Source: an uncultured virus (IMG/VR IMGVR_UViG_3300029953_000002) (taxonomy: Duplodnaviria > Heunggongvirae > Uroviricota > Caudoviricetes). Taken from it: DNA of 64,000 bases. Positions 2,423 to 53,548 of the stretch are shown here, piece after piece; position 1 is the first letter of the stretch; every line of letters begins with the position of its first letter. The stretch lies in IMG/VR virus record IMGVR_UViG_3300029953_000002; one strand, 5' to 3'. Made by a program: the position numbers and the translations under genes. The notes under the pieces were generated by a model, which saw only the letters and a program-made list of their open reading frames with translations, was not told the origin of the DNA and searched no databases.

Positions 2423-3076
2423 TTACCCAGACGCAACTTGAGCCTGCCTGATAACAGCAAGTACATTCAAATAAACAGTATCCAGATTTGTTGTCGTGCC
2501 TAAACTTACTCCGGTCGTAGGATCCACTAATGGAATAACGGCTGTTCCGTTATTTACAAGATCGAGTGTTATTGTTATTGGAGATAAAACATCCAAGTGC
2601 CTAACAGACCCATCAACAAGAACAACGGCATTACTTTGAGAAATTATTGCTGTTGGTAACCCCCCTGTAGAATCTGGCCAATTAATAACTAACTGTGGCG
2701 TACGAACATATAACACACCAACCGCATTAGCAGAATAATTCGTTGCTGGTGGATTATTAGCAACTTGAGCTTGTCTGATAACTGCGAGTATCTGAAGAAA
2801 GACGTTATCCAGCGTTGTAGTGGTTCCTAAACCAGCACCGGTGACTGGATCTACCAATGGAATAGGGGTGCTCCCGTCGCTCGTAAGATCTATCGGTATC
2901 ACCAGTGATTGTAAAACATCAAGATTTCTAGTAGTGTCATCAGCCATCGTAACTGCGTTACTTTGGCATATTGCCGCTACTGGCGACCCAGCTACATCTG
3001 GGTAATTTATTACAAGATTTGTAATTCGAACATAAGGAAGACCTACCGTAGAAGAATCATAATTCGCGCTCATCAC
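2423..3076 (-). CDS. Hypothetical protein with a tandemly duplicated ~105-aa domain (possible fibre-associated/chaperone)
   Basis: NYDSSTVGLPYVRITNLVINYPD...LQILAVIRQAQVA is repeated as NYSANAVGVLYVRTPQLVINWPD...LNVLAVIRQAQVA. Confidence 0.7.
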   Translation of the reverse strand: MMSANYDSSTVGLPYVRITNLVINYPDVAGSPVAAICQSNAVTMADDTTRNLDVLQSLVIPIDLTSDGSTPIPLVDPVTGAGLGTTTTLDNVFLQILAVIRQAQVANNPPATNYSANAVGVLYVRTPQLVINWPDSTGGLPTAIISQSNAVVLVDGSVRHLDVLSPITITLDLVNNGTAVIPLVDPTTGVSLGTTTNLDTVYLNVLAVIRQAQVASG

Positions 3077-3089
3077 TGCCTCATTTCGT

Positions 3090-4889
3090 CTAATATAAGA
3101 ACCCGGTTACAATAACTGAAACAGTCGAAGATATGGCCGACATTGATTGACTAATTCCGATCTGTTGGCCAGCTGCAATTTCTATTCCATCTGGGATATC
3201 GTACGATACATTTGTCCCGACACCGTTTGCGAACGTACCAGTCATATTAGGCACATCGACATTCATAACAATGCCCGAAGTCACCGCAACGGTGGCCGCT
3301 GCTCGAACTCGAACTCTACCAGTTATAGCGGTAGTAGACGTTGCCTTTATAGTAACTGAAATTGATGACAAACGTAATACCTTACCAGCTGGAACAGTGT
3401 AAGATGTTCCCGTCGTCACTGTCCCGGCAGTGTTTATACTCATTGACGCCAGTGCTTCAGCGGTAACGCCAGCAGCAACGTCCATGTAGAACGTCATATA
3501 CGTTCTGCCTGTATCGCTAACATTTTGAACTGGCAAAAATAATGCAGCCTGTGCTGATTTAGGCATACGTGGTGAAGAAGACCCTGCCGCCATACAAGAC
3601 GTGCCAATTGTCTGAGCAGTTGTACCAAGACTATTGATCCAAATCGACATCGGTAAATTCGGATTTTGTAAGGTAGGCGCTACAGCGATATTCGCGTTAT
3701 AAATGACATGAAATACGACCCAAACGCTATCTGGTGAAAACACTTCGAATATAATCGATGCTGCACCCAACCATCCAAAACGAATTCTGAATATGTTCAA
3801 GTTAGCAAAATTAATCGCTACAGGAACCCCAGCCTGTGTAAATTTAGAATTAGACAGCCCAGTCAACAGGTCACCGTTCCAAGATGTTCTCGGAGTAGAC
3901 GTTATTGCGCCGCCAGTCATTCTGGATAACGACATTACCCCTGCTTCGTATCCCAGCCATAACCCATTCGCAGAACCGTCCATGTAACCGATACGGGAGA
4001 ATGTGGCAGCTACTGAACTCGCCCCTGACCAATAGGCTGTAAAATAAGCAAATATTTCAAAACCAGCACGGTACGTATTTGTAGCAATGGATGACAATAA
4101 CGCAACTGATGGATTAGTTGTTGTAGTCGCAACAGTCAGCTGACCTGCTGTCCATGTTGCTGTCGCGCTACCTGACAACGTTGTTTGATTCATTAGCGTG
4201 GTAACTGTACCAGCGCCAATAAAACTCAGTTCGACTTGCGCAGTGCGTTCAGCCACTACAACCTGATTGAAACCATCTACATTGTTCGTATTAAGTGCAA
4301 CAGGCAAGCCGATGTTTGTTGTAGGTATCGCCACACCGTTGATTTCGTTAATCGATACCGGACTATTACCAAGCTGAGTTACTGCGGCTTCAGTGCCATA
4401 GTACGTATTAATATTTAACGTTGTTGTGGTCGCTGTTCCCGTGTTTTGTACCACCACGTTTAAATAGTTCCCATTGATTGGGATCGCCTGATTAAACCCT
4501 GTTCCAGCTTTAGCGTAATACACAAACGAACTACATTTTGTATTAGAAGAGGACGTGATATACTGATTGACTGTTATCGTGACCGGCTGGTCAGACACAA
4601 CAGTTAATGAAAGAGTAACTTGATTAAGAATTGATTCAATTGTCCCAGTGAACACACTAGAAGCAGTAAGTTGCCCGGTTGATGAGTTCACTGTGGATGC
4701 GATAAAACTACTTGCTGTCGGCACCACCATTATACCATTTGCGCCAGTCCCGGCTGATAAACTATTAACTGCGTACCCTAAGCCATCATTAATAGCAACA
4801 GGGATTGATGATTGATCGCTTGCGAGAACAACAGGCGCCGAGTTAGCACTAGGTGCCTGACCATTTGCGTTATTTGGAGTATAAGACAT
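3090..4889 (-). CDS. Putative virion/tail-associated protein with beta-sandwich (lectin-like) domain
   Basis: 599 aa, Thr/Ser-rich, IFRIRFGWLGAASIIFEV segment, lies within the fibre cluster. Confidence 0.5.
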   Translation of the reverse strand: MSYTPNNANGQAPSANSAPVVLASDQSSIPVAINDGLGYAVNSLSAGTGANGIMVVPTASSFIASTVNSSTGQLTASSVFTGTIESILNQVTLSLTVVSDQPVTITVNQYITSSSNTKCSSFVYYAKAGTGFNQAIPINGNYLNVVVQNTGTATTTTLNINTYYGTEAAVTQLGNSPVSINEINGVAIPTTNIGLPVALNTNNVDGFNQVVVAERTAQVELSFIGAGTVTTLMNQTTLSGSATATWTAGQLTVATTTTNPSVALLSSIATNTYRAGFEIFAYFTAYWSGASSVAATFSRIGYMDGSANGLWLGYEAGVMSLSRMTGGAITSTPRTSWNGDLLTGLSNSKFTQAGVPVAINFANLNIFRIRFGWLGAASIIFEVFSPDSVWVVFHVIYNANIAVAPTLQNPNLPMSIWINSLGTTAQTIGTSCMAAGSSSPRMPKSAQAALFLPVQNVSDTGRTYMTFYMDVAAGVTAEALASMSINTAGTVTTGTSYTVPAGKVLRLSSISVTIKATSTTAITGRVRVRAAATVAVTSGIVMNVDVPNMTGTFANGVGTNVSYDIPDGIEIAAGQQIGISQSMSAISSTVSVIVTGFLY

Positions 4890-33375: not shown

Positions 33376-33498
33376 AATGAAATCCTTTTTTTATCTACTG
33401 CGTTAATTTTTTGATGAACACCACAATAAGAAGATAAAATATAGCGTGTTTAATCATAAAGATTATGCTTGATTCTAAATTACAACAATGGACACTTT

Positions 33499-34953
33499 AT
33501 GGCTGATAAGAAGGTGATAGGTAGGGAATGTAAGTTCGTAGTATATATCCCGCCTCCAAATGATAGAAGTGTAGATAAACACTGTATTAAAGAAGTGGTT
33601 CATTATGATGACGGAACAACAGAACCCACCATTCGTATTATTGACAATTACAAACGTGATTTTTACATAACTAAAAAAGGATTTCAAAAACACAACGATA
33701 AGAAGGAATGGGATGAACTTGATCGGATGAATAAATATCAATCAAGAGAATGTGATTTAATGAAAAATGTTTGTAGAGCAATTGACTTTCCAAACTTTAA
33801 AGGTAACATGAAAAAACTGTGTCGTAATCCTTATATTTACGGCACTGATATTCTCTCTACAGCGATTATCAAACATTCGTATATGGAGAAGTATCCAGAA
33901 TGCATAACGCCTTACACTGAATGCACGTACGACATTGAAACAGACATGATAGAAGGTCATAAACACATCATCATGGCCACGGTTTCATTTGGGAAGAGAG
34001 TATTCACAGCTGTTCATAAAGAGTTCATTGGCGACCGTATGGACGTCATTAAACGACTACATGAAAAGCTACATAAATATCTTGGTAGGTTCATAGAAGA
34101 ACGCCAAATTGAATGGGAAGTAAAACTTGTTGATACAGAAGGTGAAGTGGTAACTGAGTGTTTTAAGAAAATACATGAATGGAGACCAGACTTCCTTGCT
34201 ATCTGGAACATGAACTTTGACATACCACAAACACTAGAAGCATTAAAGAGAGCTAACATACGCCCTGAAGATGTATTCTCCGACCCTAGTATACCTTTCG
34301 CCTATCGTTTCTTTAATTATAAAGAAGGTGATGATGTTAAGCATAACTCTGACGGCACTACTAAACCATTAGGTTTTGCTGAGCGTTGGCATAGTGTGTT
34401 TTGCCCTAGTAGCTTCTATGTCATTGACCCGATGTGTGTGTATCGTCAATTACGTAACGGTAGCCAAGAAGAATCTTCTTATGCACTAGATGCTATCTTA
34501 GATAAAGAATTTGCAGACAAACCAGATATTCGTAAACTGAAATTCAAAGAAGCAGAAGGTTTTGAAAAAGGTGAATGGCATTCATTAATGCAAGCAAATT
34601 ATAAATTGGAATATGTTATCTATAACGTATTTGACTGTGTGTCAATGGAAATCTTAGATGAAAAGATTAACGACATACGCAGTGGTTTCCCGATGCAATG
34701 TGAATGGTCTGATTTTAAAACATTCAAGTCTCAACCTAAACGTTTAGCTGATCTATTACACTTCTTTGCTTTGAAAAGAGGTAAAGTAATGGCTTCTGTT
34801 TCTGATCAAATGACAAATGAATTAGATCTAGAAACGACAAGTATACGCGGGTGGATAACGACATTACCTGCACATTTAGTAGTAGAGAATGGTTTACGTT
34901 GTATTATTGAGAACCAATGGGTAAACACAAATATTAGGGTTCATGTAGCTGAT
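33499..34953 (+). CDS. Family B DNA polymerase N-terminal/exonuclease subunit, exon 1 (phiKZ gp82-like)
   Basis: Exo motifs YDIETD, WNMNFDIP, YNVFDC; SYALDAIL; ends ...RVHVAD at the intron 5' splice site. Confidence 0.8.
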
Positions 34954-36671
34954 TAACAAAGATTAATAAAGTACCACCATTATATGTAGTTAACAACATA
35001 TTTGGAGGTTCTGTGTTTAAAGAAGAACAATATTTACCATACAGCAATGCTAGGTATACAGTAAATCAATATGGGAATGTGTTTGAAAGTTACGGAACAC
35101 AACTTCAAACATATGAAATAGATAATCGAGTTTATGTAGATATTGACTGGATAGAAGGAAAGAAAGCATATCCAGTGGCATTATTAGTTTTAGCTAGTTT
35201 CGACATGTTGTATATGTTTCCATCTCATCTTTATTCAAAAGTAGAATTAATGTTTAAAGATGGAATAGAAAAGAATCTTAGTCCTTCTAATTTAGTCTAT
35301 CGTTTTAAAGATGGACCTATTGAAGTTGAAGGATATCCTGGATTTTATTACATACCGTTTTATACCGGTTACGCTATTAATATCAATGGTGATTTAATTA
35401 ATATTAATAGAGGTAAAATTTTAACTTGGTATAGCCAAAAAAGTAATGGTATTAATAATCGAAAAGGTGGATACTTATACCACACTAAAGTTAAAAATGG
35501 AAAAACTAGTATTTTACTTAAACATCGCGCTATGTGTTTTGTTTTTAAAATATATAACAGTAATGTAAAAGAAATTACAGTTAATCATAGGGATTGCGAT
35601 CCTACTAATAACAAACTCGATAATCTAGAATGGTCTACCTATAGTGAGAATAACATTCACGCTATAGAAAATGGTCTTAGGGCTAGTAGATCTCGTGCTG
35701 TATTAATGCGTAATCTAAAAACAGGTGAGATAAAAAGATACCCTACAATCACACAATGTTCACGTGATATAGGGCAACCACATACTGGTCTAGTCAGACA
35801 TAGATTAGACAGTGAACATTCTATTAATAGAGTGTACCCTGACTTCTTACAGTTTAAATACGACGACGGTGTAGCTTGGCCAGAGATCGATTTAAATAAA
35901 GTAAAGATTACGTATAGTACTGATAGTACTGATATCATTGCTAGAAATGTTTTCACTGGCGAATGTATTATTTTTACCGGAGCACAAAATGGTAAAAAAT
36001 CCACCGGTGTAGAACCTTCACAAATTTCCCGACATTTACGTGATAATTGTCAAATACCTATAATCGGCTGGAATTTTCAATATTTAAAATGTTTAGGTCC
36101 ATGGCCAAACCATACCCATAGGCATTTACAAATATATGAAAAACATCCATTACATCCAAGAAATGGTCTTATATTAACCAAAATCGATACAGGTGAAGAA
36201 ATGTTCTTTACTAGTGTAAGAGAAGGTTCTGAAGCTCTTGGAATTGATATGCGTAATTTACAAGTAGCGGCTTCCAAGGGTGGGAAATATGGTAAGTACA
36301 TTCTTAAAACTTTTAAACTTGAAGAAAATCTAGGTCAGCCTATAGAGTAATCTATAGAAAAATAATCATCTAATTGCTGGAACCTCTCGTAAGACTAATC
36401 AACTAAAGCGGATAGTGAAAACTAATACGTCAATGTTTGAAAATGATTAGGTAGAGACAATCAGCAGCTAAGACTCTAAACTCGAAAGAGCATGAGTAAA
36501 GTTCAACGACTATCGCGTAAGCGAGTAGGAATCAAGTGATTCCGAAACGGTGATCCCCAGACAATAAGAAGTTATTGTCTGGGTGAAGATATAGTCTGCT
36601 CTATATGGCGACATATAGCTGTATTACTTTAATACAGATAACATAATTACGATATGTTATGAACAGAAGTG
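34954..36671 (+). ncRNA. Group I self-splicing intron (IA2-like) containing an HNH endonuclease gene
   Basis: P aattgctggaa (36372), Q aatcagcag (36459), R gttcaacgacta (36501), S aagatatagtc (36586). Exon 1 ends in U and the intron ends in G. IGS at 36328-36339. Splicing gives HVAD|LDVSASYPN. Confidence 0.9.
35013..36350 (+). CDS. Intron-encoded HNH homing endonuclease
   Basis: VNHRDCDPTNNKLDNLEWSTYSENNIHA; C-terminal NUMOD1/HTH-like repeats; GGAGG RBS before GTG. Confidence 0.85.
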   Translation: MFKEEQYLPYSNARYTVNQYGNVFESYGTQLQTYEIDNRVYVDIDWIEGKKAYPVALLVLASFDMLYMFPSHLYSKVELMFKDGIEKNLSPSNLVYRFKDGPIEVEGYPGFYYIPFYTGYAININGDLININRGKILTWYSQKSNGINNRKGGYLYHTKVKNGKTSILLKHRAMCFVFKIYNSNVKEITVNHRDCDPTNNKLDNLEWSTYSENNIHAIENGLRASRSRAVLMRNLKTGEIKRYPTITQCSRDIGQPHTGLVRHRLDSEHSINRVYPDFLQFKYDDGVAWPEIDLNKVKITYSTDSTDIIARNVFTGECIIFTGAQNGKKSTGVEPSQISRHLRDNCQIPIIGWNFQYLKCLGPWPNHTHRHLQIYEKHPLHPRNGLILTKIDTGEEMFFTSVREGSEALGIDMRNLQVAASKGGKYGKYILKTFKLEENLGQPIE

Positions 36672-36920
36672 TTAGATGTCAGTGCAAGTTACCCAAATGG
36701 CGGAGCAGCCTTCAATATTTCGAAAGAAACAACGCATAAAGAACTAACTAGTATTGTTGGTGTACCTGTACGGGCACAGAGAATGAGCACTATAAATTTA
36801 TCTTCAGGTCACACTAATGCTGTTGAAATTTGTAATAAACTATACGGCATGCCTGCAATGGAAACATTGCTACAAGCATTTATACGTAGTGAGAAAGAAA
36901 AGACGGTAGAACATGCCTAA
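36672..36920 (+). CDS. Family B DNA polymerase subunit, exon 2 (motif A)
   Basis: LDVSASYPN matches PolB motif A DxxSxYP; NISKET follows. Confidence 0.8.
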   Translation, partial: LDVSASYPNGGAAFNISKETTHKELTSIVGVPVRAQRMSTINLSSGHTNAVEICNKLYGMPAMETLLQAFIRSEKEKTVEHA

Positions 36921-45219: not shown

Positions 45220-46578
45220 TTACGCTGCTTTCTTCGTGTGAATAATACCGAGCTTGCCTTCACTATATTCCGGCATTACTGGCAACCCAGCCGCTGTCTT
45301 TGCTGCGACGTAATAGTCCACCAAGAACCGTTTGATCATGTACCGTATTGCCATGTTGTGACGATGACCATCTGTCTTATCTGCATGAGCTGGCATGTTT
45401 TCAATACGATTCTTGTAATCATAATAAAACCGACCATACACACTAGGCTCCGCAGAAACAACATGCCCTTTACTTTGCAAGAACGTCATTACCTGATCAC
45501 CTTGCTTCTCGACACCTTTGCCCTTCGCTTGCACAAATCCTTCCTCCAACGCAAGCTTAAGCCGTAACGCAGCACCCAATTTCTTTCCGTCCACCAACGT
45601 CTTACCAGCACGCAAGAATGACGAACCAAGCACACCAATCAGTTTCGTTTTCAAAAACGGATTGAATGTGATGCTATCGCGCTCAGCTACATTACCTTCT
45701 TTATTTATGTATTCCTTTTTCACAAGACAGAATCCATGTCGACTACGACCGACGTTCTTTAGCACTAGCTGTTGGCCACTCGGTGCTTTCATTTGATATA
45801 CTTCATTCGGATTGTTCATGCTTGTAACTGCACTACGTTCATCCCCAAGTTCTTCTTCAATCATCCGTGCTGGTACGGTATGTTCTTTTTTGTCTTCATC
45901 GACATACTGACCGATAGTAACAACATCGAGACCAGCATACTTGTGAATTGAAGACGCATACTTCGGAATAGCGATGTCAATTTCGGATATCAATACACCA
46001 GACATAGCAGTACCTACACCATCTACATCTCTCAAGAAGTTGTCATAAAGTGGAATGCCGGTCAAAGCACCTTCCAAATCACGGAATTGCTTTTCTTCTT
46101 GGGAAAGCATGCTGATATAAGCATGCACAAGAGTAAGTTCGCTATAGGTGCTAATGATTTCACCAGGAACAAACTTATTCTTAGAAGGAAGCTTACCGTC
46201 AACAATAAGACTTTCTTCGACTTCGAGAGAAACGACATCTTTCTTAATGTCGCTTAACTCTTCTTCTTTGGTCACGCTTTTAGTTTTTTTGCCTTTCTGA
46301 TTCTTTGCTTTAACGATTGCGGCAATTGGATCAGTAATACGTTTATAATCAGCACGTAATTCGTCTAGCATTTTCTTGTCTTGTGCAGCTAAATCCTTTT
46401 CGGACATACCGTCTTGTTTCAAACCGAGCTTGGCTTTGAAGTTACCGGTGATTCTGTTACCCATTTGAATACGAACCTTTTGAAGGTCGTATGTTCCGCG
46501 CACAATTGTACGAATGGTATCGCGAATGGTGTATTCTTTTTGTGGCTTTGCTGACGGCGTGATTACTGTGGTTTCCAT
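45220..46578 (-). CDS. tasA: TIGR-associated Nop-domain RNA-guided protein, TasA-like (no RuvC or HNH visible)
   Basis: Coiled coil YDLQKVRIQMGNRI; IS110-Tnp/Nop motifs LRDVDGVGTAMSGVLISEID, SIHKYAGL, FNPFLKTKL, YYDYKNR, HRHNMAIRYMIKRFL; no DEDD N-terminus; adjacent 36-nt array. Confidence 0.8.
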   Translation of the reverse strand: METTVITPSAKPQKEYTIRDTIRTIVRGTYDLQKVRIQMGNRITGNFKAKLGLKQDGMSEKDLAAQDKKMLDELRADYKRITDPIAAIVKAKNQKGKKTKSVTKEEELSDIKKDVVSLEVEESLIVDGKLPSKNKFVPGEIISTYSELTLVHAYISMLSQEEKQFRDLEGALTGIPLYDNFLRDVDGVGTAMSGVLISEIDIAIPKYASSIHKYAGLDVVTIGQYVDEDKKEHTVPARMIEEELGDERSAVTSMNNPNEVYQMKAPSGQQLVLKNVGRSRHGFCLVKKEYINKEGNVAERDSITFNPFLKTKLIGVLGSSFLRAGKTLVDGKKLGAALRLKLALEEGFVQAKGKGVEKQGDQVMTFLQSKGHVVSAEPSVYGRFYYDYKNRIENMPAHADKTDGHRHNMAIRYMIKRFLVDYYVAAKTAAGLPVMPEYSEGKLGIIHTKKAA

Positions 46579-47550: not shown

Positions 47551-48528
47551 TTACAGAATATTAAAGAAAGCTAATACACGCTGACGTGCACGTTCGTTAA
47601 AGCCGCCATTCGATACCGTAGCGTTAATATCAACTTGCCTTGTTGCCAAAACGCGACCCTTTGGATCTGCTGTAGTTTTCAACAAATTCAAAATACGTTG
47701 AAACAATTGACGATCAGCAGAGGACAGATGCACGTTATCAAAGAACCGAAACACATGCGTATCCGCAAACACTGAATCTTTTTCTTCATGAAATACTTTC
47801 AATATTGTTGAAAATACTTCATTAAAGTCTTCATCCAAAACATTAATAGCACGCATCAATGTTTTATAAAAACTAGCTTGATTTCTAGAACCTTCTTCTA
47901 TGCTCAATACACGTTTCGGATGCATGTTGTTCATGTAGTCGTTAATTTGACTCAGAACAATTTGACCAGCCGGGCCTACCTTAGTTAAAGAAGAAGCAAT
48001 TGTTTCATTTACAGTACTTCCTACTGACGGCACTGGTACTAATGCTGGTGCTGCCGAAGTAATCGGAGTTGGTACAGCAGTAGGAGCTACAGGATCGGGA
48101 ACTGTTGCGCTTGCATCAACAATACCAGTGGCAATTACCGTAGGAGCGTCAGTAACTGGCGTAATCGTCGTGGGTTCCGAAACAGGAGTCACGGAAAGCG
48201 TCGAAGGATCTGCTGCTCCAGATGTTGATGTAGTCGCGGCTGGTTGATCCACAGCCGCTACCACGTTTTGGTCAGTTACCGGAGTCGTGTCTTCAGACGC
48301 AGTATCAGTAACCGCTGTGTCAATGGTGGTAGGATTTTCAGTAACATCTGGAACATTACTCGCTGTGGTATCTGTAGGAGCTGGTGTAGAGGTTTGGGCA
48401 TTCGCACTTGGGGTAATCGTAGTTGTAGTTGTAACCGAGACAGTGTCAATAACAGTAGTTGTGTTTTGACCATCGTCACTTGTAGTTACGTTGCTTGATG
48501 CTGGGGCGGTAGTTGTGGAACTTGACAT
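47551..48528 (-). CDS. Conserved phiKZ-like protein (gp81-like C-terminal domain) with Thr/Pro-rich N-terminus
   Basis: C-terminal helical domain NQASFYKTL...VFRFFDNV; lies between the gp80-like and gp82-like genes. Confidence 0.5.
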   Translation of the reverse strand: MSSSTTTAPASSNVTTSDDGQNTTTVIDTVSVTTTTTITPSANAQTSTPAPTDTTASNVPDVTENPTTIDTAVTDTASEDTTPVTDQNVVAAVDQPAATTSTSGAADPSTLSVTPVSEPTTITPVTDAPTVIATGIVDASATVPDPVAPTAVPTPITSAAPALVPVPSVGSTVNETIASSLTKVGPAGQIVLSQINDYMNNMHPKRVLSIEEGSRNQASFYKTLMRAINVLDEDFNEVFSTILKVFHEEKDSVFADTHVFRFFDNVHLSSADRQLFQRILNLLKTTADPKGRVLATRQVDINATVSNGGFNERARQRVLAFFNIL

Positions 48529-48607
48529 TTTTTATTCCTTATGGGTGGTTAAAAAGCTACTGCTACCACTATTATGCGATAGCAGTAGCTTTGTTTTCAC
48601 TTAGCGA

Positions 48608-50152
48608 TTATTGACCAGTAACCACATCAGGAGTAACTTGTGTCGTAGTTTCGGTAGACACAGATGTGGTTGTTGTTGTGGTATCTGTTCCGTTGTCAAC
48701 TACAGCAGTAGTAACAACAGGAGGAGGCAATGTCGCGACAGCTGCGGTAATAGAAGCAGCCACAGCATTAACAGACAAAGTAGGAGCAGCAGCAATAACA
48801 GCGTTCGTAATAACAGTCGAAGCTGCTACAGATGCGGACGGATCAGTGATAACTGGTGAAGCCGCTACGGCAGTAGTAACAGCATTTAACAGTACACTAG
48901 GATCAGCCACTACATCCGGTGCAGCGTTTACAATGGCCGATACACCAGCCGTTACAGCAGCAACAGCGTTAGGATCTGTAATTGCCGGAGCACTGACAAC
49001 AGTAACAGCTGCGGCTGTAACAGCACCGACTGTTGCTGCTGACGCATCAGGTGCAGTCGCAGCACTTGAAGTATCGACGATAGCAGCGACAGCAACACCT
49101 GGATCCGTAGGAGCTGAAGATGTTACAGCCGAAACAATTGCGTCTGTAGAAGCAGTGACTGGGGTAACAACAGGCACCACAGCGTCAGGAGTTGCAGGAG
49201 TAGTAACTGCTACAGGATCAGAAGCAGGCACCGCAGGAGCAGTACTTGCCACAGGAGCGCTAGCCGGGGCATCCACAGTAGCAGCTGGTTCTGTAGTGTC
49301 GACCACAACAGGAACGACAGCTGGAGTTGGATCAGCTACCACCGAAACGCTATCAGGTGCCGTAACTGCCACGGGTGCTGCTGACACTACGCTAGCATCG
49401 GGTGCGACTGCCACAGTAGGGTCTACTACAACTGGTGTAGCCGTAGCAGTGCTGTCAGTAGCTGATGGGTCAACAGTAGTAGTAACTGGTGCAGGCACCG
49501 ACGAATCACTTGCAGGGGCTACAGGAGCCGTAGATGCTGGAGTAGATGCAGGTACTGCCGGTGTCGTTGCTACTACTGGTGTGGCTGGTGCATCAGTAGT
49601 AGTGGTAGTCACAGGGTCGACAGCTGTGGTATCTGGAGCACTTGCGACCACATCTGCTACAACAGGAGCTACAGTGGTGTCAACTGTTGCAGCTGTGGTG
49701 TCAGTTACTGCTGGAGTAACAGCTGTTGTGGTATCGACCGGAGCAGTAGTGTCGGCAATGACTGCTGGCGCACTCGTGTCTACAGGAGCAGCTACAGTTG
49801 GATCTGGGGATACTACGGCAGGTGTAGTAACTGCGGCAGGTGTGGCCGGAGCAGCTGGGGCTGTAATCACAGCATCCGTAGCAGGAGACTGTGAATCACC
49901 GCTATCGAGAACAACAGGAGCCGTTACATCAGCTGGTGCTGCCGCAGGTGCAACTGGTGCGGTATCGGTAACGACTACGGGTGCAGTTACTGGTGCTACA
50001 TCAGCAGCCACAATCGTTTGAATTGTTTCACTAGTGACGGTAGTGGTGGTTGTGGTGTTTACGCCATCGTCGATTACTTTAGTATCGGTTGTTTGGATTG
50101 TTTCAGTTACAGTGCTTGCGCCGCTCAGTGGTGTTTGTGTAGAACCTGACAT
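48608..50152 (-). CDS. Low-complexity Thr/Ala/Pro/Val/Asp-rich protein
   Basis: 514 aa, almost no basic or aromatic residues; GGAG RBS; followed by a hairpin at ~48554-48592. Confidence 0.65.
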   Translation of the reverse strand: MSGSTQTPLSGASTVTETIQTTDTKVIDDGVNTTTTTTVTSETIQTIVAADVAPVTAPVVVTDTAPVAPAAAPADVTAPVVLDSGDSQSPATDAVITAPAAPATPAAVTTPAVVSPDPTVAAPVDTSAPAVIADTTAPVDTTTAVTPAVTDTTAATVDTTVAPVVADVVASAPDTTAVDPVTTTTTDAPATPVVATTPAVPASTPASTAPVAPASDSSVPAPVTTTVDPSATDSTATATPVVVDPTVAVAPDASVVSAAPVAVTAPDSVSVVADPTPAVVPVVVDTTEPAATVDAPASAPVASTAPAVPASDPVAVTTPATPDAVVPVVTPVTASTDAIVSAVTSSAPTDPGVAVAAIVDTSSAATAPDASAATVGAVTAAAVTVVSAPAITDPNAVAAVTAGVSAIVNAAPDVVADPSVLLNAVTTAVAASPVITDPSASVAASTVITNAVIAAAPTLSVNAVAASITAAVATLPPPVVTTAVVDNGTDTTTTTTSVSTETTTQVTPDVVTGQ

Positions 50153-50296
50153 TTTGCTTCTCCATTAATATTGACAGTAATTGTAAAACAGAAATTGGTG
50201 ACGTTACAGCAAATTACCTGTAGTCAAATCATACGCTAATACAGTTTTTAATTCCTTTTTTCATTAAGATGTTACCCCTAATAAAAATCATCCTCG

Positions 50297-51307
50297 TTAT
50301 TGAGAGATAATATCTTTCTCAATTTTATAATCTTTAAATACCCCATTTTGTTTATTCAACGCATAAAGAAGTCTCGGTGAATAAACATTAAAATACTTTG
50401 CTGCTTTAGTAATACTATCAAATCTTAAAATTTCATCTGATGTAGTTGATCTAAAAATAAGAGGCATTGATTCTCTTACTTTATCTGGTAAACTTCTTCT
50501 AGGTAAACTTCCTACCACATCTAACAATGGTTTGTCGTCGTATTTAAATATCCAATCTTTAAATGGCGTTCCTTTTTCAGATCTCACATAATGAGTTTGT
50601 ACTGATGAAAAAAATAAACCAAGTTCAGCGGCTAATCTTTCTAATGTATTACCAATTACAATTCTTCCATCTTTTACATTAGTGGCATACCAAGCACCAT
50701 ACATTACATCCCATTTATTTTCTTCATGATCATTTGAATCTAAAAAAGGCCATGGGCTTCCATCGTCAAATTTAAAAACAAACCATTTTTTAGTAAGTGT
50801 CCCGGCAGACTTAGATCTTAAATGTCGAGTAAAACGCTTCACGCTTAAGTTAAATTGTTTTGCACATTCAGTAATACTTGGAAATAACATAACACTATCA
50901 TTAAGAATGTGTCTAGCCATTACTACTTTCTTATTCCATAGAAAATTTAAAATAGCGTGTTTACTATTTTCAGAAGGAGTGAGCCATTCGAAGTTAGTTA
51001 ATGTGTTATTACTTTTATCGCCATCAATGTGAATAACTTCTAAATCTTCAAATTTTTTATCTAAATGTCGGTTTGGTCTACCTATAAATGTTAGAGCCAT
51101 TAAACGATGAATATAATAGTTTAATGTAGATCCTTGAAAATTAATGCTTATTTTCCAATACGCATCATTTATAGGCCCTGGTTTTATAAACTTACCTGTT
51201 CGTAAGTTTATAAATTTACCATCCGGGCTAACAACAACTATATCGTTCCCAGGAACATGATAAAAACCAGGATGTTCTTTACATTCTTTTGGTATTAATA
51301 TTTCCAT
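50297..51307 (-). CDS. Free-standing HNH homing endonuclease
   Basis: IHRLMALTF...HIDGDKSNNTLTNFEWLTPSENSKHA; NUMOD1-like repeats; same architecture as the intron HNH. Confidence 0.8.
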   Translation of the reverse strand: MEILIPKECKEHPGFYHVPGNDIVVVSPDGKFINLRTGKFIKPGPINDAYWKISINFQGSTLNYYIHRLMALTFIGRPNRHLDKKFEDLEVIHIDGDKSNNTLTNFEWLTPSENSKHAILNFLWNKKVVMARHILNDSVMLFPSITECAKQFNLSVKRFTRHLRSKSAGTLTKKWFVFKFDDGSPWPFLDSNDHEENKWDVMYGAWYATNVKDGRIVIGNTLERLAAELGLFFSSVQTHYVRSEKGTPFKDWIFKYDDKPLLDVVGSLPRRSLPDKVRESMPLIFRSTTSDEILRFDSITKAAKYFNVYSPRLLYALNKQNGVFKDYKIEKDIISQ

Positions 51308-51381
51308 ATTTTTCCTTATATAATTTGTATTTGACTCACATACTATATAAGGTTATAACGAGTAAAAAATTACTTTATTTT

Positions 51382-52710
51382 TTAAAATATAGCAGTTTTA
51401 ATATCCATTTCAGCTAACATTAGCCCTTTACTGTGCCCCGCGGACATAAATATATTTAAGAAGATTGATCCGTACTCAGTGATAGCAGAAGATATACCTT
51501 TTGGACTAGCTGCAAGTCTATCCCCTACACAACATGAGCAGTAATCTGTTTTATCTAGTTTACAATACATCGGACTACGTAACATTATCTTTTTACCAAT
51601 ATATGTTTTTGCTGTTTCTGCATCAGGCACACGAACACTACCAGATTCTGTCACTACACTAAAACCAATTAACTTCTTGTATGTTTTATCTGTAGGTTTA
51701 ATAACGTTTCCTAAACGACTACCGCAATCTTGGATCTTATCGGATACGACAATATTAGATGATGCACGCATTAACCATTTTACCAATTCACCACCTAACA
51801 TCGTGTTAGCGCCTCGGTTAAATGACCCTGCACGTAATGAATTATTCATAGCTGGGAAAGCACTGACGTCCCAACCTTCTTCTAGTGAGTTCTTAATAAG
51901 ATCAACATTCACTTTTTCTTCTAGACCTACTTCAGCACCAAGCATGCCAAAGAGTTTCTTACGAACGATATTAAAGGCTTTATCCTTAATTAAGAAACCT
52001 TCGCCTTCATCACCTTTCAAATAAGCACGATCAAACTTTACTAGTTCTGCATCTATTTTAGCAATAGTCGCGGGGTCATGTAAACGATCTTTATATTCTT
52101 CTATTAACTGCGCTTTAAAAGCAGCTATACCAGGTGCAGCGGTCATTGTTTTGCGCGTAGCAGCAGGTACGCACAATTGAGAAAATCCAGCTAAATAAAA
52201 TAACGCATTTGTAAACTTCAAATACTCATCTACGTAAATTGCTGAACTAGGACCAGGTTGTTCACGATCGGTGTCATTTTCTGGAGTATCTCTAAGTCTA
52301 TCGATAATAAGACTTTCTAACATTCCGGGTTTCCATTTTTGATAATTAATATATGGAATTTTATTACCAAATGGATATACTAATACCGCGTAGTTAGCTA
52401 ATAGGCGTCCATATGTCGTGTCAATTTCAACATCCAGATTAGGTACATCACCAGCACTAATAAGAAGATGTTCCTTTATGCCGTACAGAGGTTGTCCGGG
52501 GATGGCGTCTTCTACAATAGTCAATTGGTTATTATTGTTTGGGTCAACAAAGAAGTATCCGGTAGGCGTTGCTACTAAACGATACGCGTATGGTAGTTTA
52601 GTCCACGCTTCTTTATCTTCTTGTGTTAAACTAAACGCAGTGAATACCCAAGCCCTACGACGAAATTCTTCTTGTTTCATCGCAAGAAGAAACAATGTTC
52701 TCTTATCCAT
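51382..52710 (-). CDS. Virion RNA polymerase beta'-like subunit (phiKZ gp80-like)
   Basis: TTYGRLLAN, NSLEEGW, RAGSFNRG, DCGS, LRSPMYC...CSCCVG Zn site and FMSAGH: beta' C-terminal-half motifs. Confidence 0.8.
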   Translation of the reverse strand: MDKRTLFLLAMKQEEFRRRAWVFTAFSLTQEDKEAWTKLPYAYRLVATPTGYFFVDPNNNNQLTIVEDAIPGQPLYGIKEHLLISAGDVPNLDVEIDTTYGRLLANYAVLVYPFGNKIPYINYQKWKPGMLESLIIDRLRDTPENDTDREQPGPSSAIYVDEYLKFTNALFYLAGFSQLCVPAATRKTMTAAPGIAAFKAQLIEEYKDRLHDPATIAKIDAELVKFDRAYLKGDEGEGFLIKDKAFNIVRKKLFGMLGAEVGLEEKVNVDLIKNSLEEGWDVSAFPAMNNSLRAGSFNRGANTMLGGELVKWLMRASSNIVVSDKIQDCGSRLGNVIKPTDKTYKKLIGFSVVTESGSVRVPDAETAKTYIGKKIMLRSPMYCKLDKTDYCSCCVGDRLAASPKGISSAITEYGSIFLNIFMSAGHSKGLMLAEMDIKTAIF

Positions 52711-53548
52711 TTTGAGTGTTCCTTTGTAATTGAATCTGATAAGCAGAAACAATATTCATAATTTTAGTAGTGTGCTCAATGCCGCTAATAAAGTTTTCTA
52801 AATTATCAATAATAATAGCTTGCGGATTATCACAACCGTCTTGACTAGCTAAGGCCATTGCATATAATTCTTGCGCAGCGTACTCAGGTGTCATTTCTTC
52901 TAACTTTCTACCGATCGTATTAGCGTATAGTAAGAAAGGATAACCAACGGTTAGGCCGTTATGGATTAAACCAACAATAGTTAATGCGGGGTTATTTGTT
53001 AGACTAATAAATTCTTTTAACGCATCAGTATGTTTCTTATTTATTGCACGTACTTCGTCAGATATATCACCACCACATTCGGCTTCGATTAGATCTTTAA
53101 TAAGCCCAATAACGCGATGTGTTACTGAGTGAATATATGGTAATATTTCATCTGCTGTCTTTGAAGTAACTAATGCAACAATCTCAGCAAATACTTCTTC
53201 AGGACTTTCATCTATTTGGATGGTACGTAAAAGCGCATCTTTATCATCATACATCTGAACAATTGATAAAGCATTAATAAACATTGTACGAATTTGCATC
53301 GTAGCATCGTCGTTAATAAACACACCGTGTTCTTCTAATATTTGATGCTGGATATTGTTTGTTAATAGGACGATTGATTGTACTGTAATACCAGCATCGA
53401 CTAAATCATCTACCATTAGAATAGATTCAAAACCATCTTGGTAGTCGTCTTTACCTATTTTATAAAAGGCTTTATGTGCATCTTCAATTGTTGTTTTTAA
53501 TTCTGGTGTTACCGCACTAGCTAAGTAGTTAGACAATACATCAAACAT
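52703..53548 (-). CDS. Conserved phiKZ-like protein (gp79-like)
   Basis: 281 aa; overlaps the start of the RNAP subunit gene; synteny. Confidence 0.5.
   Translation of the reverse strand: MFDVLSNYLASAVTPELKTTIEDAHKAFYKIGKDDYQDGFESILMVDDLVDAGITVQSIVLLTNNIQHQILEEHGVFINDDATMQIRTMFINALSIVQMYDDKDALLRTIQIDESPEEVFAEIVALVTSKTADEILPYIHSVTHRVIGLIKDLIEAECGGDISDEVRAINKKHTDALKEFISLTNNPALTIVGLIHNGLTVGYPFLLYANTIGRKLEEMTPEYAAQELYAMALASQDGCDNPQAIIIDNLENFISGIEHTTKIMNIVSAYQIQLQRNTQNG

Follow-up and report, generated by a model that had tools for sequence, protein, structure and literature searches.

This locus raises the question of why the gene for a phage DNA polymerase subunit is interrupted one codon ahead of its catalytic motif, and where in the interrupting element an HNH endonuclease gene is carried. 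It lies in a 64,000-nucleotide (nt) stretch of an uncultured virus (IMG/VR IMGVR_UViG_3300029953_000002), hereafter the window. Three open reading frames (ORFs) follow one another on the plus strand, of 495 amino acids (aa; 33469-34956), 445 aa (35013-36350) and 83 aa (36669-36920). Based on sequence comparisons, positions 34954-36671 are very probably a mobile IA-type group I intron in the polymerase N-subunit gene (DNAP-N) of a phiKZ-like jumbo phage from peat, with the HNH gene in the loop of P1, the helix that joins the end of exon 1 to the internal guide sequence. We consider the intron well supported, and its layout recurrent, little discussed and not new. The parts of the locus are:

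33469-34953, plus strand: exon 1, DNA polymerase N-subunit (family B, exonuclease part, to ...HVAD), from the ORF list and phrog_3011
34954-36671, plus strand: predicted group I intron, 1718 nt, with an in-frame UAA first (34954-34956) and the terminal G last; edges set by homologues
34954-35012, plus strand: P1-loop leader, 59 nt, with the in-frame stop UAA and a predicted hairpin, then the GTG start
35013-36350, plus strand: HNH homing-endonuclease gene, 445 aa, placed in the P1 loop, from Pfam, phrog_59 and homologues
36328-36339, plus strand: predicted internal guide sequence, AUCUAG (P10 partner) then GUCAGC (P1 partner), from pairing as the best site
36340-36357, plus strand: P2 hairpin CUAUAGA-GUAA-UCUAUAG, 7/7 pairs, from the Rfam alignment
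36358-36671, plus strand: ribozyme core and 3' extensions, from a helix script check and the Rfam alignment
36672-36920, plus strand: exon 2, LDVSASYPN... to the N-subunit end, 82 aa and stop, from phrog_3011 and tblastn

Residues 12-495 of exon 1 match positions 5-494 of the 576 positions of phrog_3011, annotated 'DNA polymerase' (E-value 4e-170), and residues 1-78 of exon 2 match positions 495-572 (E-value 4.3e-23); across both exons the N-subunit family is matched near full length, from position 5 to 572. Exon 1 also has a weak match to Pfam DNA_pol_B_exo1 (16.4 bits, below the cut-off of 23), and it starts either at TTG 33469 or, more likely, at the ATG at residue 11. Searches by tblastn gave matches in 290 phage records for the last 150 residues of exon 1 and in 222 for exon 2, nearly all of them phiKZ-like jumbo phages and all at <60% identity except for one exon 2 match at 60-80%. 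In nine intronless phages found in both tables, the exon 1 and exon 2 matches adjoin without a gap, to the base (last and first positions of the two matches):

RP31, 237672/237673
RP12, 240919/240920
FLC1-1B, 249413/249414
FLC4-3B, 250664/250665
FLC9, 282580/282581
LucasX, 85239/85238
RTH11, 15833/15832
Psa21, 74283/74282
pEa_SNUABM_54, 259744/259743

A metagenome relative (L014, 41% identical) is likewise uninterrupted across the insertion site (...TCDLDASSSYPS...). Because intronless homologues are continuous at this site, the junction is fixed at GAT|TTA (HVAD|LDVSASYPN, the bar marking the splice junction). The initial annotation had proposed this same junction, and both the nine abutting pairs and the break between phrog_3011 positions 494 and 495 agree with it exactly. 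A shift of the junction by one base would leave the mRNA the same, but the terminal G and the U.G pair at the splice site would be lost. The insertion is one codon ahead of the Asp of DVSASYPN, which we take to be the catalytic residue of motif A by the consensus DxxSLYPS, in keeping with the annotated position just before PolB motif A. The gene ends about 82 residues past motif A because chimallivirus polymerases are two-subunit enzymes; the available text of a 2026 preprint on phage Goslar describes such an enzyme, made up of DNAP-N (gp068) and DNAP-C (gp244).

The distribution of the intron is patchy: it is absent from the nine phages listed and from the 41% relative, and Goslar has an intron at the same site. 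No close intronless allele of the window phage was found in the viral-contig or metagenome-contig collections; the metagenome contigs gave one identical contig (287.6 kb, 0 mismatches over 2567 nt), the 41% relative and one 27% relative.

The interrupting sequence opens with UAACAA and closes with the G at 36671, as checked by script, and it matches the Rfam group I intron model RF00028 with 90.1 bits (E-value 1e-21, gathering score 50). This match covers 36311-36618 on the plus strand and the full model (1-253), and is the sole Rfam match in the window. The covariance-model search, which had been named as a check on the assignment, therefore upheld the annotated group I intron; the script check bore out the annotated P8 at 36556-36583, the terminal G at 36671 and the core, including the P7 pairing of R and S. 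The helices of the core and its extensions are:

36365-36370 and 36549-36554, plus strand: P3, 6/6 pairs
36375-36380 and 36461-36466, plus strand: P4, 6/6 pairs
about 36384-36387 and 36453-36456, plus strand: P5, with a long L5 insert, from the Rfam alignment
within 36467-36502, plus strand: P6, P6a and P6b, with P6 and P6a coordinates from the Rfam alignment
36508-36512 and 36592-36596, plus strand: P7, 5/5 pairs
36513-36524, plus strand: P7.1, 4/4 pairs
36528-36543, plus strand: P7.2, 6/6 pairs
36556-36567 and 36572-36583, plus strand: P8, 12/12 pairs
36601-36618, plus strand: P9, 7/7 pairs
36619-36637, plus strand: P9.1, 8/8 pairs
36638-36660, plus strand: P9.2, 8/8 pairs

P7.1 and P7.2 lie between the 5' strand of P7 and the 3' strand of P3, where the Rfam alignment shows inserted sequence, a feature that fits subgroup IA. 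The two hairpins between R and the P3 3' strand that had led to the label 'IA2-like' are thus present, with IA2 as a candidate subgroup.

The predicted guide sequence is directly 5' of P2. Its GUCAGC (36334-36339) pairs with the end of exon 1, GCUGAU (34948-34953), to give a P1 of 6/6 pairs with a U.G pair at the splice site, and its AUCUAG (36328-36333) pairs with the start of exon 2, UUAGAU (36672-36677), to give a P10 of 6/6 pairs. Both helices were as first annotated, and the distance between the 5' splice site and the guide, given there as ~1.37 kb, measures 1380 nt to the guide G. Among the 308 G positions scanned in the intron, the one at 36334 ranks first (sum of P1 and P10, 12). The guide falls in the codons E-N-L-G-Q-P of the HNH ORF, as had also been claimed and as a script confirmed, and the last 23 nt of the gene overlap the guide sequence together with the 5' strand and loop of P2, with the stop codon UAA (36348-36350) in the GUAA loop of that hairpin.

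To place the ORF relative to P1 we compared eight loci: the window, Goslar, HPP-Temi, PhiPA3, phiKZ gp179, Serratia 2050HW, Churi and H101. The polymerase N gene of PhiPA3, deposited as two genes, contains a group I intron without an ORF (Rfam 71.7 bits) that begins ...GGAU|UAAAUAUUAGUCCCAUCAAGU... and has a P1 loop of 9 nt, its P1 hairpin being conventional (GGAU|UAAAUAUUAGUCC). HPP-Temi has a nearly identical guide and P2, with an HNH ORF of 1335 nt inserted in the P1 loop; this ORF crosses the guide and terminates within P2. Because PhiPA3 and HPP-Temi differ by an HNH insertion in that loop, these relatives settle, at the level of sequence, the question of whether such an ORF sits in the P1 loop. 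The same layout is found in the introns of phiKZ, Goslar, HPP-Temi, 2050HW and Churi. The initial annotation was therefore right to place the HNH gene in the P1 loop and overlapping the guide, while the unusualness that it implied is tempered by the recurrence in five relatives. Across the eight loci the guide G is 36-40 nt ahead of the conserved AAUUGNNGG, the assumed exon end is directly followed by UAA, and in seven the best helix to the assumed end of exon 1 is 4-6 base pairs (bp). The P1 pairs vary on both sides (GCUGAU/GUCAGC, GGAU/GUCC, UGAU/GUCA and GAAAU/GUUUC), with covariation at position -4 (U-A, G-C or A-U) and at position -3 (G-C or A-U).

One of these loci was rejected as an example of the layout. 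H101 had been taken for a terminase-gene intron with an ORF in P1; its P1 there is 2 bp, the terminase ends naturally and the ORF is no HNH gene (19% identity). By eye, H101 is an ORF-less intron of the next gene, with P1 GGGU/GCCC and UGA, again an in-frame stop, as the first intron codon.

Closest to the window locus in position is Goslar (gp068/gp069, NC_048170), with an intron in the same gene and at the same site (FVAD|LDISSSYPN). It likewise starts with UAA and has an HNH/NUMOD gene (gp069, 32.8% identical to the window HNH protein) between the 5' splice site and the guide. Unlike the window ORF, that of Goslar stops 3 nt before the guide G, without overlap; its P10 is weak by eye, compared with 6/6 pairs here, and its ribozyme has no blastn kinship with that of the window. 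According to the available text of the Goslar preprint, that intron is a self-splicing intron with a homing endonuclease gene; the spliced coding sequence was inferred and used to express the N subunit, and a figure legend refers to a primer-extension assay with the C subunit. The introns in the DNAP-N genes of PhiPA3 and HPP-Temi are in the same motif and are inserted 6 nt further downstream (HVADLD|VSTYPN); the HPP-Temi HNH gene, like that of the window, occupies the P1 loop and has its stop codon in P2, and the two ribozymes share with ours a 30-nt stretch of the core or nothing. The closest ribozyme is instead that of the phiKZ gp180/gp179/gp178 intron (74% identity over 250 nt, 85% over about 110 nt), whose host is the virion RNA polymerase beta gene and not a DNA polymerase gene. 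As in the window, the phiKZ HNH gene (gp179) is in the P1 loop and its ORF runs through the guide and ends inside P2, with a P1 of just 4 bp.

The window ribozyme is thus nearest to that of the phiKZ RNA polymerase intron, and blastn matched it to neither the Goslar nor the HPP-Temi polymerase intron, while the HNH protein of the window is nearest to the polymerase-intron nucleases (HPP-Temi 36.4% and Goslar 32.8% identity, with phiKZ gp179 at 27.7%). As their nearest relatives differ, ribozyme and nuclease have separate histories, with modules exchanged between phages.

Group I introns with genes for HNH nicking endonucleases are present in the DNA polymerase genes of phages SPO1 (I-HmuI) and Bastille (I-BasI), and the window shares with them an HNH gene in a polymerase intron. 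Among nuclear rDNA introns the P1 case is Physarum I-PpoI. The nuclear rDNA P1 introns, as well as T4 td with I-TevI, differ from the window intron in subgroup, nuclease family and host. A review of nuclear introns places nuclease genes in P1, P2, P6, P8 or P9; according to one of bacterial introns, there are ORFs that overlap with the core, and their expression is then under tight control, for which it cites I-TevI. A survey of Bastillevirinae reports 10 introns in which one side of the nuclease loop has no ribozyme signature. In the papers searched, supplements excepted, the P1-loop layout of phiKZ-like introns is nowhere set out, and nothing specific turned up on nuclease genes in the P1 loop of phage introns; the predicted intron structures in Table S5 of PMC11878797 may bear on this. 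In the available text of Birkholz et al. (2024; PMC11620839), PhiPA3 gp210 is an HNH endonuclease in a putative group I intron of a nucleus-forming phage, and it harms a co-infecting relative. The host gene of gp210 is, as in the window, an essential polymerase-type gene, but that of an RNA polymerase beta subunit.

The 445-aa ORF matches Pfam HNH_3 (E-value 1.1e-8, 35 bits against a cut-off of 24.8), phrog_59 'HNH endonuclease' (E-value 3.7e-25) and phrog_959, and has a weak match to the I-HmuI NUMOD-like domain PF22083 (19.1 bits, below the cut-off of 27). The HPP-Temi intron HNH protein, its nearest homologue, is aligned over 98% of the length, and a search of PDB sequences gave no match at an E-value <= 0.01. 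In the leader, a predicted hairpin (34970-35012) pairs the Shine-Dalgarno sequence GGAGG (35004-35008) with CCACC ahead of the GTG start at 35013. The ORF traverses the guide sequence in three introns (window, phiKZ and HPP-Temi) and halts 3-12 nt short of the guide G in three others (Goslar, 2050HW and Churi), and the C-terminal tails of the HNH proteins of the related introns fail to align. As the tail is not conserved, the simplest reading of the overlap with the guide is that of a by-product of insertion, an unconstrained tail dating from the landing of the gene in the P1 loop, rather than jointly selected dual coding.

A second HNH gene, free-standing, is present at 50297-51304 of the window (minus strand), directly downstream of an RNA polymerase beta gene (51382-52749, minus strand) that is complete (phrog_2962 positions 1-432 of 433). 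Its product is a paralog of the intron HNH protein (25% identity, E-value 1e-25), and no ribozyme was found near it, in 48500-52900, at an E-value <= 1. Judged by eye, its Shine-Dalgarno sequence is in a hairpin like that of the intron leader, and similar hairpins are present in phiKZ and 2050HW.

If these elements function as drawn, the long-range P1 would form, guanosine would attack at 34953/34954, P10 would align exon 2, and the terminal G at 36671 would be used for ligation, giving a subunit of 577 aa. Ribosomes arriving from exon 1 would halt at the in-frame UAA formed by the first three intron bases, and the nuclease would have a translation start of its own (GGAGG/GTG), which the hairpin may damp. 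The nuclease would then nick or cut intronless polymerase alleles, with homing of the intron as a result, and it may harm co-infecting relatives. We have also considered a broader idea, which we regard as rather unlikely: that in the IA introns of jumbo phages the nuclease gene goes into the P1 loop by rule, and that a ribosome reaching the end of this gene and the pairing of P1, P10 and P2 would be mutually exclusive on one RNA. Such a splice-or-nuclease switch would be resolved by compartment, with splicing in the ribosome-free phage nucleus and the excised intron exported as the nuclease mRNA. The excised intron could serve in this role because 59 nt of it precede the ORF and its 3' end is a folded ribozyme. 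No description of a switch of this kind, with a phage-nucleus compartment, was found in the literature searched.

Several observations weigh against the intron and P1 assignments set out above. Of 5000 shuffled introns, 428 reach a sum of P1 and P10 of at least 12 bp somewhere and 4239 hold a 6-bp P1 somewhere; without the positional argument the pairing is not significant and is weak evidence. The relatives' P1 helices are of 4-5 bp and are not the longest possible helix in each intron, and the loci share descent, with 6 of the 8 exon ends finishing in GAU, and are not independent tests. The Goslar intron has no Rfam match at the gathering score. The leader hairpin (-13.2 kcal/mol, z -1.54) is equalled in stability by 14 of 200 shuffles and is not significant, and the activity and target of the nuclease are inferred from family membership only. 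Lastly, no spliced joint was present in the contigs of four metatranscriptome runs, whereas an X8 contig (34791-34985) crosses the 5' site unspliced and the 3' site is crossed unspliced by contigs of X8 (35183-36914), X12 (35207-36807) and X17 (36521-36807). The guide assignment carries weight because of its position, being the best site in the intron and touching P2: random 40-mers of intron composition give a P1 of at least 6 bp and a P10 of at least 6 bp within about 12 nt of P2 in 18 of 200000 cases.

Metagenomes from peat and permafrost contain the stretch, and 35-77% of its words recur in seven metatranscriptome runs. The RNA evidence consists of contigs rather than reads, which cannot show absence, and the libraries may hold DNA; the unspliced contigs neither show nor exclude splicing. 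One contig of 151 nt (X13 record 5) aligns to 34808-34954 except for its final 4 letters, which do not fit. A spliced junction would have this appearance, T being the first base of exon 2 as well as of the intron; we did not count the contig as a junction. Contig depth over the ORF and ribozyme was 18, 7.8 and 20, versus 3-7 over exon 1, values that are unsafe for ranking. Shortly after the HNH ORF begins (35039), 17 nt are missing from one X8 contig of low depth (3.3), possibly a variant or an assembly error. In three RNA runs, contigs match just 36582-36616 (35 nt, from the P7 3' strand to P9) and have other flanks; these are other introns that share the conserved core in the same samples.

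The finding of only unspliced contigs in four RNA libraries would also be expected of an intron that has decayed or depends on its host, splicing itself poorly and needing a protein helper. P1 must bridge 1380 nt, a loop that might hamper its formation, and translation of the end of the ORF would unwind the guide sequence and P2. Against such decay, the core is intact in all its helices, as are the U.G pair and the terminal G, the Rfam score is high, the layout persists in six phages, and the identical 287.6-kb contig repeats the sequence without a mismatch. The host gene, moreover, encodes a replicative polymerase, which would be without motif A unless the exons are ligated, and we regard decay as improbable. 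Misassignment of the guide, with the ORF outside the P1 loop, appears more improbable still. In 1.7 kb, chance alone often yields helices as long as this, and the second-best site, at 36097, sums to 11 compared with 12; its P1 is just 3 bp (P10 8 bp), and it is inside the ORF, 240 nt from P2. The guide could otherwise be an unrecognized site in the 59-nt leader, but no leader site with a P1 of at least 4 bp is in the top list of the scan. The Rfam model itself puts P1 and P2 at 36311-36357, and the PhiPA3 and HPP-Temi pair and the fixed position at -36 to -40 back 36334.

In chimalliviruses the polymerase already consists of separate N and C subunits, and one could imagine that the N part is itself two polypeptides, encoded on either side of a free-standing HNH gene, with the ribozyme as a relic. 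GTG 36669 does open the 83-aa ORF, and the window holds the free-standing HNH paralog without a ribozyme described above. We give this version hardly any credence: the break matches the boundaries of a complete ribozyme to the base, P1 and P10 pair with both flanks, homologues are continuous at the insertion site and, by eye, no Shine-Dalgarno sequence precedes 36669.

With splicing of a group I intron as the preferred reading, the polymerase N-subunit would be annotated as one 577-aa protein, rather than as a truncated gene and an orphan. The same correction applies to PhiPA3 (NC_028999), whose gp085 and gp084 are two exons of the polymerase N gene separated by an intron after HVADLD (L012, 1591 to about 1935), and to HPP-Temi, in which the exons flanking the intron with its P1-loop HNH gene (L011, 1431 to about 3130) were deposited as separate genes. 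Motif A of the chimallivirus polymerase is a hot spot, with introns at two sites 6 nt apart. PhiPA3 and HPP-Temi together offer a clean natural system for the tolerance of a 1.3-kb P1 insert and for the separation of nuclease translation from splicing. By analogy with PhiPA3 gp210, the window nuclease may act in competition among co-infecting jumbo phages.

Further introns were observed in the same phage outside the window and in Churi. The former are two ORF-less group I introns, 58 nt apart (G001, 77832-78088 and 78146-78480, minus strand; L004/L005; 83.4 and 89.2 bits), behind an ORF of 370 aa that may encode an RNA polymerase subunit. In Churi (L009), a single locus for the beta subunit of the non-virion RNA polymerase has two group I matches (2423-2668 and 2936-3256; 89.6 and 85.3 bits). 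The first comes after an HNH gene in its P1 loop, an arrangement that suggests tandem introns separated by a short exon. Elsewhere in the window, a 451-aa ORF at 45220-46575 (minus strand) matches the PHROG 'transposase' family phrog_4285 (E-value 3e-22).

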